64,000 nt of DNA from Escherichia coli (GTDB taxonomy: Bacteria; Pseudomonadota; Gammaproteobacteria; Enterobacterales; Enterobacteriaceae). This document shows positions 37,393-57,754 of this stretch, one piece after another. The position numbers and the translations under genes were made by a program. The notes under the pieces were generated by a model, which searched no databases, was not told where the DNA came from, and worked only from the letters and a program-made list of their open reading frames with translations. The DNA lies in assembly GCF_044324875.1 (NCBI RefSeq), contig NZ_CP172185.1. One strand, given 5' to 3'. The first letter of the stretch is position 1; every line of letters starts with the position of its first letter.

Positions 37393-37575
<183 letters not shown>

Positions 37576-39638: not shown

Positions 39639-39654
39639 TGTGATATCGGTCACA
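39639..39654. promoter_or_regulatory. CRP binding site (perfect consensus half-sites) in mtlA promoter
   Basis: TGTGA-tatcgg-TCACA. Confidence 0.75.
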
Positions 39655-39755
39655 TAAATATAGGGGGTAGAGAGGTAATTGACGTGATGCTCATCACAAA
39701 ACTATTGTGTAAAAAAGCAACAAGGCGGCGATTTTCGCTAAAAATGGCATTTAAA

Positions 39756-39771
39756 TGTGAGTAATGTCACA
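39756..39771. promoter_or_regulatory. CRP binding site (perfect consensus half-sites) in mtlA promoter
   Basis: TGTGA-gtaatg-TCACA. Confidence 0.75.
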
Positions 39772-39799
39772 TTTTTGTTTTGTTGGTTTGTTGAATCTT

Positions 39800-39815
39800 T
39801 GTGATCTGAATCACA
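39800..39815. promoter_or_regulatory. CRP binding site (perfect consensus half-sites) in mtlA promoter
   Basis: TGTGA-tctgaa-TCACA. Confidence 0.75.
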
Positions 39816-48622: not shown

Positions 48623-48653
48623 TATAAGAAGCTGGTCGCATTGGGTATTCATT

Positions 48654-48737
48654 GCCTGATGCGACGCTTACGCGTTTTATCATGCCTACGGGGACCTGAC
48701 CGTAGGCCGGATAAGGCGTACACGCCGCATCCGGCAT
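48654..48737. repeat. REP/BIME element downstream of aldB
   Basis: gcctgatgcgacgcttacgcg... and gtaggccggataaggcgtacacgccgcatccggcat REP-like units. Confidence 0.8.
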
Positions 48738-51734: not shown

Positions 51735-52475
51735 ATGTTAATTAACCGCAATATTGTGGCGTTATTTGCGTTGCCTTTTATGGCAAGCGCAACTGCTTCT
51801 GAATTATCCATTGGTGCTGGTGCGGCTTATAATGAATCGCCTTATCGCGGTTATAATGAAAATACAAAGGCAATTCCGCTGATTAGTTATGAAGGTGATA
51901 CTTTTTATGTTCGTCAGACCACGTTAGGTTTTATTCTGTCGCAAAGTGAAAAAAATGAACTTAGCCTGACCGCATCCTGGATGCCGCTGGAATTTGACCC
52001 TGCCGATAATGACGATTATGCCATGCAACAGCTTGATAAGCGTGATAGTACGGCTATGGCGGGGGTTGCCTGGTATCACCACGAGCGTTGGGGAACCGTG
52101 AAAGCCTCTGCGGCTGCGGACGTTCTGGATAACAGCAACGGCTGGGTGGGGGAGCTATCGGTATTCCACAAAATGCAGATAGGTCGCCTGTCGCTGACAC
52201 CTGCGCTGGGCGTTCTCTATTATGACGAGAATTTCAGTGACTATTACTATGGCATTTCAGAGAGTGAGTCCCGTCGTAGCGGTCTGGCAAGTTATTCCGC
52301 GCAGGATGCCTGGGTGCCCTATGTCAGCCTGACGGCAAAATACCCGATAGGAGAGCACGTCGTATTGATGGCGAGCGCAGGATACAGCGAGCTGCCGGAA
52401 GAGATTACCGACAGCCCGATGGTTGATCGTAATGAGAGTTTTACCTTTGTCACTGGCGTGAGCTGGCGTTTTTAA
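51735..52475 (+). CDS. yiaT: MipA/OmpV-family outer-membrane protein
   Basis: 246 aa with signal peptide and C-terminal aromatic residue (ends SWRF). Confidence 0.85.
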   Translation: MLINRNIVALFALPFMASATASELSIGAGAAYNESPYRGYNENTKAIPLISYEGDTFYVRQTTLGFILSQSEKNELSLTASWMPLEFDPADNDDYAMQQLDKRDSTAMAGVAWYHHERWGTVKASAAADVLDNSNGWVGELSVFHKMQIGRLSLTPALGVLYYDENFSDYYYGISESESRRSGLASYSAQDAWVPYVSLTAKYPIGEHVVLMASAGYSELPEEITDSPMVDRNESFTFVTGVSWRF

Positions 52476-52484
52476 TTCACCGGT

Positions 52485-52604
52485 GGATGTCGGTGCGGCT
52501 GGCCTACGCTCTCGCACCGACTTGTAGGCCTGATAAGACGTGTTAAGCGTCGCATCAGGCAATGTGCACCCTACGGTGGATGCGGCGCGAGTGCCTTATC
52601 CAAC
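52485..52604. repeat. REP/BIME-like palindrome cluster at the yiaT-proximal boundary of the accessory insert
   Basis: Hairpin gtcggtgcg/cgcaccgac; REP-like gcctgataagacgtgttaagcgtcgcatcaggc; further REP-like half. Confidence 0.75.
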
Positions 52605-54575
52605 CTACGGATGGCAATGCTTTTCCTCATTCACCCAGATCCGCATTTCGCCTTCACCCCGGTTGGCCCAGCTAAACCACGGGATAAACGTCAGAATTTG
52701 CGGCTGGCGTTTGGCTGGCGCGCTGTCGTAATGCCACAGCGGTTGCTGCTCTGGATTGCTCTGTTCATACCGGTAACCCGGTGCCTGGATTAAGATCTTA
52801 TGGCTGAACAATCCCTTACCTTCAAATGTCGTAAATGGCGCATCGGCGGGCAGCCACAGGTTATGCAGTGACTCGCCGTTGTCGGCCTGTTCCAGGCAAT
52901 ACACCAGCGGGCCGCGCTGAATCGCCACTTTTCCGGCGACGTGACGCACCAGAGGGTTACCGTAAACGCGGCGTACCGGCATCGGCAAAGTCAGATTCAG
53001 CGTATCGCCCTCCTGCCATTCGCGGGTAATGTGCAAATACCCTTTACGAATATCCTGCTCGACCTCTTCCCCATTCAATATGATCTGCGGCTGTGTGCAC
53101 CAGTCCGGCAGACGTAAAGCCAGCGTATGACGCACCGGCTGGGGCGATTCAACCGCAATTGTCACCTGTTCCTGCCACGGATAGTTCCCGCTAACCCGCA
53201 GGCGCAACGTGCCATTTTCTACCGGCACTTCCATGCTGTTTCCTGCGTAGATGTTGATATACAACGCATCTTCACGCGGCGTGTAGAGATAATGACCAAT
53301 CGAGGTCAGTACGCGGGCGATATTTGGCGGACAACAAGCGCAGCCAAACCAACGCTGGCGGAGCGGTTTAACGTGATCGTAGATATGGTTGAATTTCAGC
53401 GATTTTGGATGTACTTCCAGCGGATTCACATAGAAGAAATGTTTGCCATCCAGTGCCATGCCGCCGAGCACAGTGTTGTACAGCGCGCGCTCCATCACAT
53501 CGGCATATTGACTGTCGCCTTCCATTTCCAGCATTCGCCGGGCAAACATCATCAGGCCGATGGAGGCGCAACTTTCAGCGTATACCGTGTCATTCGGCAG
53601 ATCGTAATCGCTGCTGAACGCTTCACCGCTGCTTTGTGAGCCAATGCCGCCGGTAATATATAACTGACGCTGGGCCATATTGTTCCACAGCCGCAGGCAA
53701 TCCTGACGCTTGCTTTCATCGTGACTTAAACGCGCCAGATGTGCGACGCCAGTCATCAGGTAGACAAAGCGTACTGCATGTCCGATGGCGGTTTGTTGCT
53801 GTGCGATGGGCAAATGCGCCTGGCTGTAGGCTTTATCTTTCACCATCCACGCCGGGCCGTAGGTGTGCCAGTGCGAGGTCTGCCCGCGCTTTTCATATTC
53901 CTGGTCGTAATAGTGCGGTTGCGCACCACGCTGTTCGACAAAATAGTTCGTCAGCGCCAGGTAGCGCGGCTCTTCGGTCACTTCATACAGGCGCATTAGT
54001 GCCAGTTCAATTTCCGGGTGACCAGGATAACCGTGTAACTTACTTTCACCTGGACCAAATACGCTGTCGATATGATCGGCCAGACGGCAAACCACTTCCA
54101 GCAAGCGCCGCTTGCCCGTGGCCTGGAAGAAGGCGACTCCGGCTTCAATCAGATGACCGGCGCAGTAAAGTTCATGACACTCCGCCAGATTGCTCCAGCG
54201 TTCTTCGGGCGCTTTTACCGTAAAGTAAGTATTGAGATAGCCATCTTCGCACTGGGCGGAGGCGATCAGTTCAATCACCTCGTCAGCAGTTTTTTCCAGT
54301 TCGGCATCCGGCTTCTGGCACAGCGACCAGGCTACCGCTTCCAGCCATTTGGCGACGTCGCTGTCCTGAAACACCATCCCGTAAAATTCACCGTCTTGCA
54401 GTCCTGCGGCAATGCGAAAGTTTTCAATCGCATGGCTGGGTTCCGCTTCTGGGATACGATCGTTCAAGGCGTCCCACTGATAAGGAATCACCACATCGCG
54501 GACCAGTTGTTGGTACTGACCGAGGAACGGATCGCTGACCGTCAGTTTATGCAGATCGACTTCCGAAATGTTCAT
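52605..54575 (-). CDS. Glycoside hydrolase family 127 protein (DUF1680; beta-L-arabinofuranosidase-like)
   Basis: About 656 aa from MNISEVDLHKL; family assigned from overall resemblance to HypBA1-type proteins, including a Cys-rich C-terminal region. Confidence 0.65.
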   Translation of the reverse strand: MNISEVDLHKLTVSDPFLGQYQQLVRDVVIPYQWDALNDRIPEAEPSHAIENFRIAAGLQDGEFYGMVFQDSDVAKWLEAVAWSLCQKPDAELEKTADEVIELIASAQCEDGYLNTYFTVKAPEERWSNLAECHELYCAGHLIEAGVAFFQATGKRRLLEVVCRLADHIDSVFGPGESKLHGYPGHPEIELALMRLYEVTEEPRYLALTNYFVEQRGAQPHYYDQEYEKRGQTSHWHTYGPAWMVKDKAYSQAHLPIAQQQTAIGHAVRFVYLMTGVAHLARLSHDESKRQDCLRLWNNMAQRQLYITGGIGSQSSGEAFSSDYDLPNDTVYAESCASIGLMMFARRMLEMEGDSQYADVMERALYNTVLGGMALDGKHFFYVNPLEVHPKSLKFNHIYDHVKPLRQRWFGCACCPPNIARVLTSIGHYLYTPREDALYINIYAGNSMEVPVENGTLRLRVSGNYPWQEQVTIAVESPQPVRHTLALRLPDWCTQPQIILNGEEVEQDIRKGYLHITREWQEGDTLNLTLPMPVRRVYGNPLVRHVAGKVAIQRGPLVYCLEQADNGESLHNLWLPADAPFTTFEGKGLFSHKILIQAPGYRYEQSNPEQQPLWHYDSAPAKRQPQILTFIPWFSWANRGEGEMRIWVNEEKHCHP

Positions 54576-54585
54576 CTTGTGCTCC

Positions 54586-55986
54586 TTAAGGCTGTACATG
54601 ACGCTGACGCAGGTCGCTAGCAATGCGTGACATCATAGGGTTATTGAGTTTGCAAAAGCGGATCGCCATCGCCAGCAGCAGGTGGAATAGCGCAGGCAGC
54701 AATGTTTCCATTGCTGTGATCCCGCCAAGCGAACTGGCGGTCTGGTTTTCCACGCCTGGCTGGTAGGCGACAAAAATAAACAGCAGGCTGATGATCCCGG
54801 CGCTGGAGGCCCAGGCCAGCTTGATGAAAAACAGATTGAAGGCGAAGTTCATGCCGGAAGAACGTACGCGGGTTTTCCACTCGCCGTAGTCATCGGCAAA
54901 GGCCATCAATGAGAAGTGCAGTGGCAATGTGAAGCCAAGAATCACGCCATTACCGAGGATCACCGCCAGCCACAGCGTTTGATAAGCCGGGCCAGAGGGC
55001 AGGAACCACATCAACACCGCCAGCGCAGCGAGGAGCAGGTTGGTGTAGTAGTAAATTTTGACGGTATCGAAACGCCGCGTTAATGGGCTGACAATCACCG
55101 AGCCGATAATGGAGGCGAAGGTGACCATGGTGAAGAACAGCGACGTGTAGCCCGTACTGCCTTGTAAGACGTAGGTAATGAAGTACATATACCCACCGCC
55201 GCGAATATTAAAGACGTTAATCAGCAGGAAAGACATGACCAGCATCAGCAGCAGTTGGTCGTTGTTTCGCAGCCCGGCAAGATGTTCGCGCAGGGTAAAT
55301 TTCCCCATTGTGGAGAGTGGTACCCGTTCACGAACCCAGAAGAAACAGCACAGGAACATCACCACAGCGATGGCGCACAGCACGCCGACGCCCAGTTGAT
55401 AGCCGCGCGCGGCATTACCCTGACCGAAGAGATCCACCATCCACGGTAAGCCTACCGAAACCAGAAATCCCGCTACACCGCAGAGAACGAATCGCCAGGA
55501 CTGGCAGGAGATCACTTCATTGTGGCGGGTGGTCATGGTGTTGATCAGCGCGCAGTACGGCACGTTGATGGCGGTATAACCGACTGAAAGGAGCAGGTAA
55601 GTGCCGAACGCCCAGGCGATTTTTACTCCCATGCTGGCATCTGGCACGGTGAACGTCAGGATGCCGATAATGCCGATGGGAATGGCAATCCATAACTGCC
55701 ACGGACGAAAGCGCCCCCAGTGACTTTGCGTCCGGTCGGCAATGACGCCCATCACCGGGTCGGAGATGGCATCAAACACGCGCAGTGCAATAAACAGCGT
55801 GCCGACCAGCGCCGGAGTTAAGCCAAAAACGTCGGTGTAGAAAAAGGTGAGAAAGTTCATGATCAGGCAAGTTATTACGGTGCCGCCTGCGTCACCCAGG
55901 CCGTAGCCTATTTTTTCCCGTACAGATAACGCATCGTCAATTTTACCTTTAGCGATATCAGCGGTAGTAATCGGTGTAGAGGTCAT
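54586..55986 (-). CDS. Glycoside-pentoside-hexuronide (GPH) family cation symporter
   Basis: 466-aa 12-TM MFS-type protein, MelB/YicJ-like; 10 bp upstream of the GH127 gene. Confidence 0.75.
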
Positions 55987-56146
55987 AGATATTCCTCGTA
56001 AATAGGGAGCAATTTTTAGTTTTATTGCAATGACCTGATTAATTCTGCCGTGAACGGGAATATCAACAAGGCGAGAAAAGAGTAAAAAAAGGTGACGATT
56101 CCGACCTGAATTTAAAAGTGTGAATTGGATCAGGTGAAATTAATGT

Positions 56147-56165
56147 TTTTGATTAATAATCAAAA
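56147..56165. promoter_or_regulatory. Candidate operator palindrome in the divergent transporter/regulator promoter region
   Basis: ttttgatta-a-taatcaaaa, 9-bp perfect arms, about 50 bp upstream of the AraC-type gene. Confidence 0.35.
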
Positions 56166-56211
56166 GGTAATGTGTTTGATCATTAATGAATAAGCGGGAA
56201 ATTACATATCA

Positions 56212-57027
56212 ATGCTCGAATTATCCATGACGTTACCGATTAAAGTGCAAAATGGTGGATTATTTATTTCCCGTGGCGTAGGGAGGCATCCGGCAAGGCG
56301 GCTGGAGTCATGGGAAATTATCTTTGTCGAAAAAGGTCGATTAGCGATTCAGGAAGAAGAGCGGATATTTCTGGTCGATGCGGGAGAGAGTTTATTACTC
56401 TGGCCGAACCGACAGCATGTTGGGGTAGAGGATTTTCCCGCCGATCTCAAATTTTACTGGCTGCATTTTGAGGTTAAAGCGCCGGACAACGACCCGCGCT
56501 GGCTCACTCATCTTAGCGTGCCGCAACAAACAAAGGTTGCCGATCGGCAGGCGCTGGTGGCCCTGTTTCGCCAGTTCTTAAGCGAACAGGAAAAGCATCA
56601 ACGCACTCCGGCGCTGGAGTTTATTGTGCTGCTGATTTTGCAGCAACTCACCCGTGACGCGCGTCTTGATGAACAGGCCGATGCCGCAGGTACCACGCTT
56701 GCCTGGAAAGCGCAGAAACTGATCCGCACGCAATATCATCGCCCGCTTTCCACGGCGCTTTTAGCCCGCGAGCTGTACTGCAATGCCGATTATCTTGGGC
56801 GCGTCTACCGGCGGGTGTTTCATCTGACGTTAACAGAAGCAATTCATCGCCAGCGAGTGCGCGAAGCCGAAAAGCTGTTAATTAGCGAAGCGCGATCGCT
56901 CACTGAAGTGGCTGCGTTGTGCGGGTTTAATGACGTTGGCTATTTCCGACAGATTTTTCGCAAACACACCGGTTTAACGCCAGCTGCGTGGAAGCGACGT
57001 TACAGCAAGGAACATATCAATTCGTAG
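56212..57027 (+). CDS. AraC/XylS-family transcriptional regulator
   Basis: 271 aa; cupin-like N-terminus and C-terminal double-HTH region. Confidence 0.8.
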   Translation: MLELSMTLPIKVQNGGLFISRGVGRHPARRLESWEIIFVEKGRLAIQEEERIFLVDAGESLLLWPNRQHVGVEDFPADLKFYWLHFEVKAPDNDPRWLTHLSVPQQTKVADRQALVALFRQFLSEQEKHQRTPALEFIVLLILQQLTRDARLDEQADAAGTTLAWKAQKLIRTQYHRPLSTALLARELYCNADYLGRVYRRVFHLTLTEAIHRQRVREAEKLLISEARSLTEVAALCGFNDVGYFRQIFRKHTGLTPAAWKRRYSKEHINS

Positions 57028-57028
57028 T

Positions 57029-57050
57029 GCCGGGGCAATGAAGCCCCGGC
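57029..57050. terminator. GC-rich hairpin between convergent AraC-type gene and sgbE
   Basis: Perfect stem gccggggc/gccccggc with 6-nt loop; no clear U-tract on either strand. Confidence 0.45.
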
Positions 57051-57058
57051 GTGAGGGA

Positions 57059-57754
57059 TTACTGCCCGTAATAGGCATTGGCCCCATGCTTACGCAGGTA
57101 GTGCTTATCTAACAGTTCGTTTTGCATCGCAGGGAGCTGCGGCGCAAGCTGACGCGAGAACAGGCCCATATAGGCACACTCTTCCAGCACCACGGCGTTA
57201 TGCACTGCATCGGCGGCATTTTTTCCCCAGGCGAACGGGCCGTGAGAATGTACCAGAACCGCCGGGATTTGCGCTGGACTCCTGCCGCGTTCTTCGAGGG
57301 TTTCAATGATCACTTCGCCAGTCTGGTATTCATACTCGCCGTTGATCTCTTCTGCGGTCATCAGGCGCGTGCAGGGGATGGCTCCATAGAAGTAATCGGC
57401 GTGCGTGGTGCCCCAGGCGGGGAGATCCAGCCCGGCCTGTGACCAGATGGTCGCGTGGCGCGAGTGGGTATGCACAATGCCACCGATTTCGGCATAGCGA
57501 CGGTAGAGCGCCAGATGCGTTGGCGTGTCGGACGAGGGCTTTTTGCTGCCTTCCACCCCCTTACCGCTGGCTATCTCAACCACCACCATATCGTCGGCGG
57601 TCATCACGTCGTACTCGACGCCGGAAGGTTTGATTACCATCCATTGCCGCGTTTCGTCTACCGCGCTGACATTGCCCCAGGTGAACGTCACCAGATGGTG
57701 AGCGGGAAGCGCCAGATTCGCCGCCAGCACGTCGGCTTTCAGTTGCTCTAACAT
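57059..57754 (-). CDS. sgbE: L-ribulose-5-phosphate 4-epimerase
   Basis: 231-aa class II aldolase/epimerase matching SgbE. Confidence 0.9.

Follow-up and report, generated by a model that had tools for sequence, protein, structure and literature searches.

Beta-L-arabinofuranosides are found in nature in plant extensins, arabinogalactan proteins, arabinan and rhamnogalacturonan-II (PMC10850190), and in Bifidobacterium beta-1,2-arabinobiose is freed extracellularly by a GH121 enzyme (PMC8106489). In the GH127 enzyme HypBA1 of Bifidobacterium longum the nucleophile is Cys417 and the acid/base is Glu322, and three cysteines and one glutamate hold a zinc ion (PMC8106489, PMC10850190); the substrate site of HypBA1 includes H142, Y145, H194 and R273, and a loop comprising residues 35-49 (loop A) covers the active site (PMC10850190). 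E. coli is said to be unable to reach L-arabinofuranose directly (PMC8489885). Here we analyze an interval of the E. coli chromosome that lies between the genes yiaT and sgbE and holds, in 4583 bp, three intact genes for a GH127 glycosidase, a GPH symporter and an AraC-family regulator (positions 52476-57058 of the window, by which we mean the whole stretch of 64,000 nucleotides analyzed). Taking all the results together, we read this module as an ancestral catabolic unit, probably for plant beta-L-arabinofuranosides, that has been deleted in K-12 and in about 45% of E. coli, and to this reading we give a probability of roughly 0.6.

A GH127 enzyme of the beta-L-arabinofuranosidase type in a minimal symporter operon is mostly ordinary and already annotated at the family level, the exact protein sequences standing in public databases as a glycoside hydrolase family 127 protein, a GPH symporter or MFS transporter, and an AraC family regulator. 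In the literature searched, no work on the biochemistry or genetics of the enterobacterial module came to light. GH127 has been reported to co-segregate with invasiveness in isolates from inflammatory bowel disease, its function being assigned by citing HypBA1, without a functional test (PMC11879602). Given the distribution of alleles among strains described below, this association may largely track lineage.

Results

The GH127 glycosidase

A preliminary description of the window, made from its sequence, had placed a stretch of about 4.5 kb with three genes between yiaT and sgbE, edged by a cluster of repetitive extragenic palindromes (REP; bacterial interspersed mosaic elements, BIME) on one side and by a GC hairpin on the other, and had read the genes as a divergently transcribed AraC-type regulator, a MelB-like GPH symporter and a cytoplasmic GH127-like enzyme. 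Gene coordinates, strands and gene content agree with this architecture, the REP/BIME cluster lying on the yiaT side and the hairpin on the sgbE side, and so do the RefSeq gene calls for near-identical genomes; the three family assignments also stood up to the profile searches reported here.

The GH127 gene (52605-54575, minus strand) encodes 656 amino acids from its ATG, and the protein carries all three Pfam domains of the family, the (alpha/alpha)6 catalytic domain (PF07944; E = 1.4e-111; residues 12-427) being followed by the middle and C-terminal beta-sandwich domains (PF20736, 1.3e-23; PF20737, 4.2e-25). Among solved structures the best match was Ara127N of Geobacillus stearothermophilus (PDB 4QJY; 787 bits), aligned from end to end with 346 of 630 positions identical (~55%), and the second was HypBA1 (511 bits); Bacteroides GH127 structures ranked lower (6EX6, 391 bits; 5MQO, 322 bits) and GH146 enzymes were far behind. 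In the alignment with HypBA1, residues E322, E338, C340, C417 and C418 of that enzyme correspond to E318, E334, C336, C414 and C415 here, and its substrate residues H142, Y145, H194 and R273 to H134, Y137, H186 and R269, all of them identical. With the family matched and its catalytic residues complete, Cys414 is the predicted nucleophile and Glu318 the predicted acid/base, and the residues of a Cys3-Glu zinc site (Glu334/Cys336/Cys414/Cys415) are present, zinc binding itself being a prediction. No hydrophobic stretch was found at the N-terminus of the protein, and the enzyme is therefore cytoplasmic, as had been proposed. A beta-L-arabinofuranosidase activity (EC 3.2.1.185) is predicted, and well supported, by this homology.

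The transporter and the operon

The symporter gene (54586-55986, minus strand, 466 amino acids) comes first in the operon. Its stop codon stands 10 bp from the start of the GH127 gene on the same strand, the GH127 ATG has a strong Shine-Dalgarno sequence (AAGGAG) 6 nt before it, and the two genes form one operon. The protein scored 330.8 bits against the GPH:cation symporter model TIGR00792 (cut-off 231.35; residues 25-462), and its residues 20-460 align with MelB structures in a full-length match, with hydrophobic segments throughout. The named GPH models all remained below their cut-offs: the nearest were the putative symporter YagG (355 bits against 610) and a GPH transporter model without a gene name, PRK11462 (323 against 836), ahead of MelB (207 against 456) and the glucuronide transporter (192 against 528). 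Judged by these scores, the transporter is a distinct, unnamed GPH subfamily.

The regulator and the control region

The regulator gene (56212-57027, plus strand) encodes 271 amino acids with the C-terminal double helix-turn-helix (HTH_18, 4e-19; HTH_AraC, 5e-8) and the N-terminal AraC-type cupin ligand domain (AraC_binding, 1.6e-8) of the AraC/XylS family. The protein fell far below all NCBIfam equivalog cut-offs. AraC itself was considered and rejected (NF007860, 61.8 bits against a cut-off of 208), and on these scores the database name 'Arabinose operon regulatory protein' does not appear to be justified. No solved relative of the ligand domain was detectable by sequence.

Between the divergent regulator and operon lies a control region of 225 bp (55987-56211) that is AT-rich (G+C 0.41) and in which the conservation profile across 70 loci showed strongly conserved blocks at about 56070-56134. 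Inside the conserved block, on the plus strand, stands a CRP-like site, TGTGAATTGGATCAGG (56119-56134), whose TGTGA half-site is perfect. Because the CRP pattern search as a whole gave 22 matches where 25.6 were expected, we count this site only on the ground that it is located in a block conserved across species. The scan for sigma-70 promoters likewise gave one promoter-like site overall against 4.1 expected, and a search by eye of the conserved block for direct-repeat half-sites of the regulator found no convincing pair. The remainder of the block may hold an activator site that overlaps a weak promoter.

Two further features of the window concern its control sequences. On the regulator-proximal side of the control region there is a near-perfect inverted repeat, ATTAATGATCAAA / TTTGATTATTAAT (56142-56183), of which the second arm alone is moderately conserved across species. 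Elsewhere, at 39639-39815, four CRP-consensus sites (three perfect and one with a single mismatch) fall within 180 bp, far denser than the scattered matches with two mismatches found in other places. Their density suggests that this is probably a heavily CRP-controlled promoter, perhaps that of mtlA.

Ancestry of the block and its loss in K-12

The gene order of K-12 given in the preliminary description, with yiaT next to sgbE, was essentially right, yet in MG1655 the two genes are separated by 346 bp annotated as the pseudogenes ysaD (b4649) and ysaC (b4648), fragments of 192 bp and 102 bp. Alignment identified them as deletion remnants of the GH127 gene and the AraC-family gene, respectively, at the same locus. 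The K-12 sequence follows the window continuously to position 52502, continues at 52713-52902 (90.5% identity, within the 3' part of the GH127 gene), and picks up again at 56924, covering the final 104 bp of the AraC-family gene (56924-57027) and running on into sgbE. The first deletion, of about 210 bp between GGCTGG microhomologies, took out the REP cluster together with the end of the GH127 gene, and the second removed 4021 bp. With remnants of both genes still in place, it is K-12 that shows the derived state, the one left by deletion.

The relatives of the enzyme were scanned with one genome per species (263 relatives), and neighboring genes were located by tblastn in 80 loci. The full order lyxK-sgbH-sgbU-sgbE, AraC-family gene, GPH-GH127, yiaT-yiaU(-yiaV) was found in several Citrobacter species and in Enterobacter, Lelliottia, Pseudocitrobacter and Huaxiibacter; the half on the sgbE side (sgbE-AraC-GPH-GH127) in Salmonella diarizonae, Klebsiella, Raoultella, Phytobacter and Kosakonia; and the trio together among genes other than yia and sgb in Pantoea, Buttiauxella, Kluyvera, Rouxiella and others. 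The three genes stay together in about 70 species. Many of the trio-bearing genera (Pantoea, Kosakonia, Phytobacter and Mangrovibacter) are plant-associated, as is Bradyrhizobium, whose enzyme is 72% identical. In six loci outside the yia/sgb neighborhood (five of them with the trio), inspection by eye of open reading frames without annotation made no sugar-catabolic neighbor evident, which would fit a product handled by core metabolism. The ratios of nonsynonymous to synonymous divergence (dN/dS) were between 0.03 and 0.14 for all three genes, and between 0.03 and 0.08 within Escherichia, so that the three genes are under purifying selection.

That the block is instead a horizontally acquired accessory island, inserted between a yiaT and a sgbE that were ancestrally adjacent, was how the preliminary description had seen it, and this view can draw on the lack of the block in K-12 and in more than half of the complete E. 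coli genomes, on its patchy presence within the genus Escherichia, and on the REP cluster and the hairpin at its edges. The K-12 site, however, is not empty but holds decayed internal fragments of the GH127 and AraC-family genes, and the same gene order at the same place recurs in several other genera; amino acid identity declines with taxonomic distance much as that of sgbE does. The three genes have a G+C content of 0.53-0.57, like that of their flanks, and the gene calls revealed no integrase, transposase, tRNA or direct-repeat boundary at the locus. A clean empty site, absence from outgroups, atypical composition, and mobility genes or boundary repeats are thus all lacking, and we regard an insertion as very improbable. 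The module is a vertically inherited, self-contained ancestral enterobacterial block that was lost in K-12 by deletion.

Two observations on relatives stand apart. The GH127 protein of Bradyrhizobium species (loci L075-L079 and L082) shares 72-73% identity with the E. coli enzyme, as much as the most distant Enterobacterales do, but no GPH or AraC-family gene lies next to its gene, and this similarity suggests transfer between distant lineages. In Escherichia whittamii (locus L006, 4657-6364) the end of sgbU and the AraC-family gene are 43 bp apart, and in that gap no sgbE was detected.

Alleles of the locus in E. coli

The comparison of the yiaT-sgbE junction across E. coli genomes that had been proposed as a check was carried out on 5426 complete genomes. 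At least 80% of the block is held by 2313 of them (~43%), about 2450 (~45%) carry an identical K-12-type scar of 325 bp, and 638 gave no match. Six alleles were seen when a wider query of 8 kb was used and genomes were sampled evenly down the ranking; phylogroup was checked for named strains only. The full ancestral state (829 genomes) includes a B-strain expression host with three intact genes. In the O157:H7 type the trio is present, the genes from yiaK to sgbE are deleted and yiaJ is truncated, and in the ST131 type aldB abuts the GH127 gene, yiaW to yiaT having been deleted. The K-12 scar, the fourth allele, is shared by DH5alpha and an O111 strain. In the ATCC 25922 type aldB abuts sgbE and everything from yiaW through the AraC-family gene is gone (locus L085, 7415-9695), and in a rare sixth allele a deletion from inside yiaT to inside sgbH has fused the truncated genes (strain 12690; locus L087, 10099-10917). 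Besides the K-12 scar there have been at least four other independent deletions at the locus. O157:H7, ST131 and the laboratory lineage of the B strain are among the carriers of the trio; K-12 is not.

Such recurrent loss raises the alternative that the E. coli module is in decay, a relic without current function and in the course of being lost, and to the at least five independent deletion alleles one could add that the ST131 copy of the GH127 gene is annotated as frameshifted. The frameshift, however, is a difference of 1 bp within the last ~20 bases of the gene and touches only about the last six codons. So near the end of the gene, and outside the part that aligns with the crystal structures, it probably does not abolish activity, and we dropped it as evidence of decay. 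All three genes are intact in the window, their dN/dS within Escherichia is low (0.03-0.08), and some 2300 genomes keep the block. A relic is, in our estimation, improbable.

Several alleles have further peculiarities. In O157:H7 a truncated remnant of yiaJ (IclR) and ysaA stand directly beside the trio's AraC-family gene (locus L003, 7554-7694; locus L088, 27318-28850). In ST131 (phylogroup B2; locus L086, 4362-8050) the distance between aldB and the GH127 gene is 180 bp, with yiaW-yiaV-yiaU-yiaT missing; the same strain has a Fic-family gene between yiaY and aldB and a DUF4862 gene between yiaL and yiaM, neither of which is in K-12. NEBExpress, an expression host of the B strain, holds the intact trio (locus L089, 2460-6891), whereas K-12 derivatives carry only the scar. 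When window positions 51735-57027 were compared with O157:H7 (L003), synonymous divergence was 0.019 in yiaT and 0.11-0.14 in the three genes of the trio, a contrast that points to a recombination mosaic at the locus.

Flanks and boundaries of the block

The local gene order is yiaW, yiaV, yiaU, yiaT, the interval of 4583 bp, sgbE, sgbU, sgbH and lyxK. On the left, outside the module, yiaT (51735-52475, plus strand) is an open reading frame for an outer membrane protein of the MipA/OmpV family, annotated as yiaT in near-identical genomes and with a weak match to OmpV. Just 3' of its stop codon the search for inverted repeats found a perfect stem-loop of 9 bp, GTCGGTGCG/CGCACCGAC (52489-52521), whose left arm is retained in the K-12 scar. 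The REP/BIME cluster (52522-52604), absent from that scar, follows between the convergent yiaT and GH127 genes. It contains two REP-like palindromes (52528-52560 and 52547-52588) with the features of such elements, in that they are imperfect, about 35 bp long and alternate in orientation, and are intergenic and repeated in the genome. Further REP copies occur in the window at 48650-48689 and 37463-37544, sharing arms with the REP at 52522-52561, and another at an unrelated position of the genome (genome match H30). The Rfam family naRNA4, an RNA described from a REP cluster (REP325), matches 52527-52605 with 57.3 bits, just below its gathering score of 59.5.

On the right, a GC stem-loop with a stem of 8 bp, GCCGGGGC/GCCCCGGC (57029-57050), separates the convergent AraC-family gene and sgbE and is retained in K-12. 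No T tract follows it on either strand, and a scan with the terminator consensus called no intrinsic terminator at this hairpin or at the REP cluster. The flanking sgbE (57059-57754, minus strand), the last gene of the yiaK-sgbE operon, encodes L-ribulose-5-phosphate 4-epimerase according to its annotations and to a score above the cut-off of NF009002 (506 bits).

Discussion

Starting from the gene content, protein families, catalytic and substrate residues, synteny, scars, purifying selection and frequencies that we observed, we infer a substrate, an inducer, sites for CRP and the regulator, and a fate for the released sugar as follows. A sugar ligand would be sensed by the cupin domain of the regulator, which, probably together with CRP, would activate the divergent GPH-GH127 operon. 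The cation symporter would import a small beta-L-arabinofuranoside, the candidates being beta-1,2-L-arabinobiose or fragments of the arabinofuranosyl-hydroxyproline (Araf-Hyp) type from plant extensins, arabinans or arabinogalactan proteins, set free by plant turnover or by other gut bacteria; that beta-1,2-arabinobiose is a shared gut substrate is plausible. In the cytoplasm the GH127 enzyme, as a putative retaining cysteine glycosidase (Cys414, Glu318 and the Cys3-Glu zinc site), would cleave the non-reducing beta-L-arabinofuranosyl residue, and the L-arabinose released would enter the ordinary AraA/AraB/AraD route. Uptake and intracellular hydrolysis of a small glycoside, possibly a beta-L-arabinofuranoside, was also what the preliminary description had suggested, and by homology (GH127 domains, structure ranking and residues) it appears to be the most likely role. 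Hints at expression come from the CRP-like site within the conserved promoter block and from the reported induction on lactulose of a Salmonella GH127 gene, not necessarily an ortholog, to which we return below.

A number of points weigh against this reading. The only GH127 model of NCBIfam is that of aceric acid hydrolase, the family holds other specificities, among them 3,6-anhydro-D-galactosidase, so that membership of the family is not enough to settle the substrate. Compared with HypBA1, both the window enzyme and Ara127N have a loop A shorter by 12 residues, and the preference for the aglycone or at the +1 position may differ. The CRP-like site carries two mismatches and by itself falls short of significance, and a simple sigma-70 consensus scan found no promoter in the control region. 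The repeated loss within E. coli indicates that the module is dispensable in many lineages, and our literature search found no enzyme assay, growth test or expression data for any enterobacterial member.

Some of these points lead to an alternative in which architecture and ancestry are as described and the substrate is another small glycoside (a different furanoside or a glycoside of plant secondary metabolism), the enterobacterial clade having a new GH127 specificity. Besides the several activities of the family and the shortened loop over the active site (PMC10850190), it could appeal to an identity with characterized enzymes of ~55% at best, to a GPH symporter as partner instead of the ABC importer of Bifidobacterium (PMC8106489), and to a Salmonella GH127 gene, not necessarily an ortholog of the window gene, that was reported to be induced on lactulose, a non-glucose carbon source (PMC13304739). 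The response to lactulose, however, may merely reflect release from catabolite repression, and the window enzyme agrees with HypBA1 at all four positions of the substrate site and throughout the catalytic and zinc set. Its two nearest structures were deposited as beta-L-arabinofuranosidases and come well ahead of the Bacteroides GH127 entries. Aceric acid hydrolase (NF049879), although the top NCBIfam match, was rejected because it scored 455.7 bits against a cut-off of 950, the model being matched only partly in its best stretch, and because the ranking of structures puts the two deposited beta-L-arabinofuranosidases first. We consider a substrate of another kind unlikely, and we retain beta-L-arabinofuranosides as the probable substrates.

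Whether the sugar released by the enzyme feeds the neighboring sgb/lyx genes, as had been suggested from their neighborhood, is a different matter, and the suggestion found no support. The AraC-family gene and sgbE converge across the hairpin, O157:H7 keeps the trio after the loss of the whole yiaK-sgbE operon, and in about 40 of about 70 other species the trio had no sgb neighbor detected within the fetched flanks. Released L-arabinose would need AraA and AraB before the step catalyzed by SgbE or AraD, and L-ribulose 5-phosphate is the only shared metabolite. A link between the trio and the sgb genes is unproven, and we see in it an old neighborhood, a matter of synteny.

The direction of the event at this locus is corrected by our results, in that K-12 is derived and the genes belong to the chromosome of the enterobacterial ancestor, and the locus is a compact illustration of genes being lost repeatedly in independent events. 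Should the predicted activity be true, E. coli strains differ in their access to a plant-derived source of pentose, and, if the gene is also expressed, lysates of B-derived hosts could give background in GH127 assays. A wider reading, possible but tentative, is that the trio gives about 43% of E. coli and many Enterobacteriaceae a strain-variable capacity to scavenge beta-L-arabinofuranosyl disaccharides or hydroxyproline-arabinosides released from extensins and arabinans by the plant or by GH121 enzymes of the Bifidobacterium type, that the module shapes colonization of gut and plant, and that niche-specific selection has left its trace in the repeated independent deletions; more radically, the clade could have a new GH127 specificity. 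The interest of the locus lies mainly in this possible strain-variable nutrient niche, in the difference between K-12 and B strains, and in the recurrent deletions.

How the module relates to the systems already described can be summarized as follows. With Ara127N (AraN; PDB 4QJY/4QK0), the intracellular enzyme of G. stearothermophilus T6, the window enzyme shares the three-domain layout, the short loop A and the lack of a signal peptide. The Geobacillus enzyme reportedly belongs to a large L-arabinan utilization regulon with ABC importers, whereas the window enzyme sits in a minimal unit of three genes with a GPH symporter and an AraC-type regulator. The logic of HypBA1 (Bll1HypBA1), which works with HypBA2 and an ABC importer in B. 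longum, is the same, namely the import of a small beta-L-arabinofuranoside followed by its cytoplasmic hydrolysis (PMC8106489), and the Cys nucleophile, the Glu acid/base, the Cys3-Glu zinc site and the substrate residues are identical. The two enzymes nevertheless match with 511 bits only and differ by 12 residues in loop A, uptake in the window module would be by a cation symporter and not by an ABC transporter, and the regulator is of the AraC type. The module also has no extracellular GH121 arabinobiosidase as partner, so that the cell would rely on substrate freed by others.

Within E. coli, the placing of a GPH symporter gene beside that of a cytoplasmic glycosidase recalls MelB-MelA (with the regulator MelR), YicJ-YicI and YagG-YagH, and the mel system likewise has a divergent AraC-family activator that works with CRP (PMC13304739). 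From these pairs the window module differs in its order, transporter and then enzyme, and in its enzyme family, GH127. Compared with K-12, finally, where ysaD and ysaC are fragments, the window holds the intact ancestral genes.

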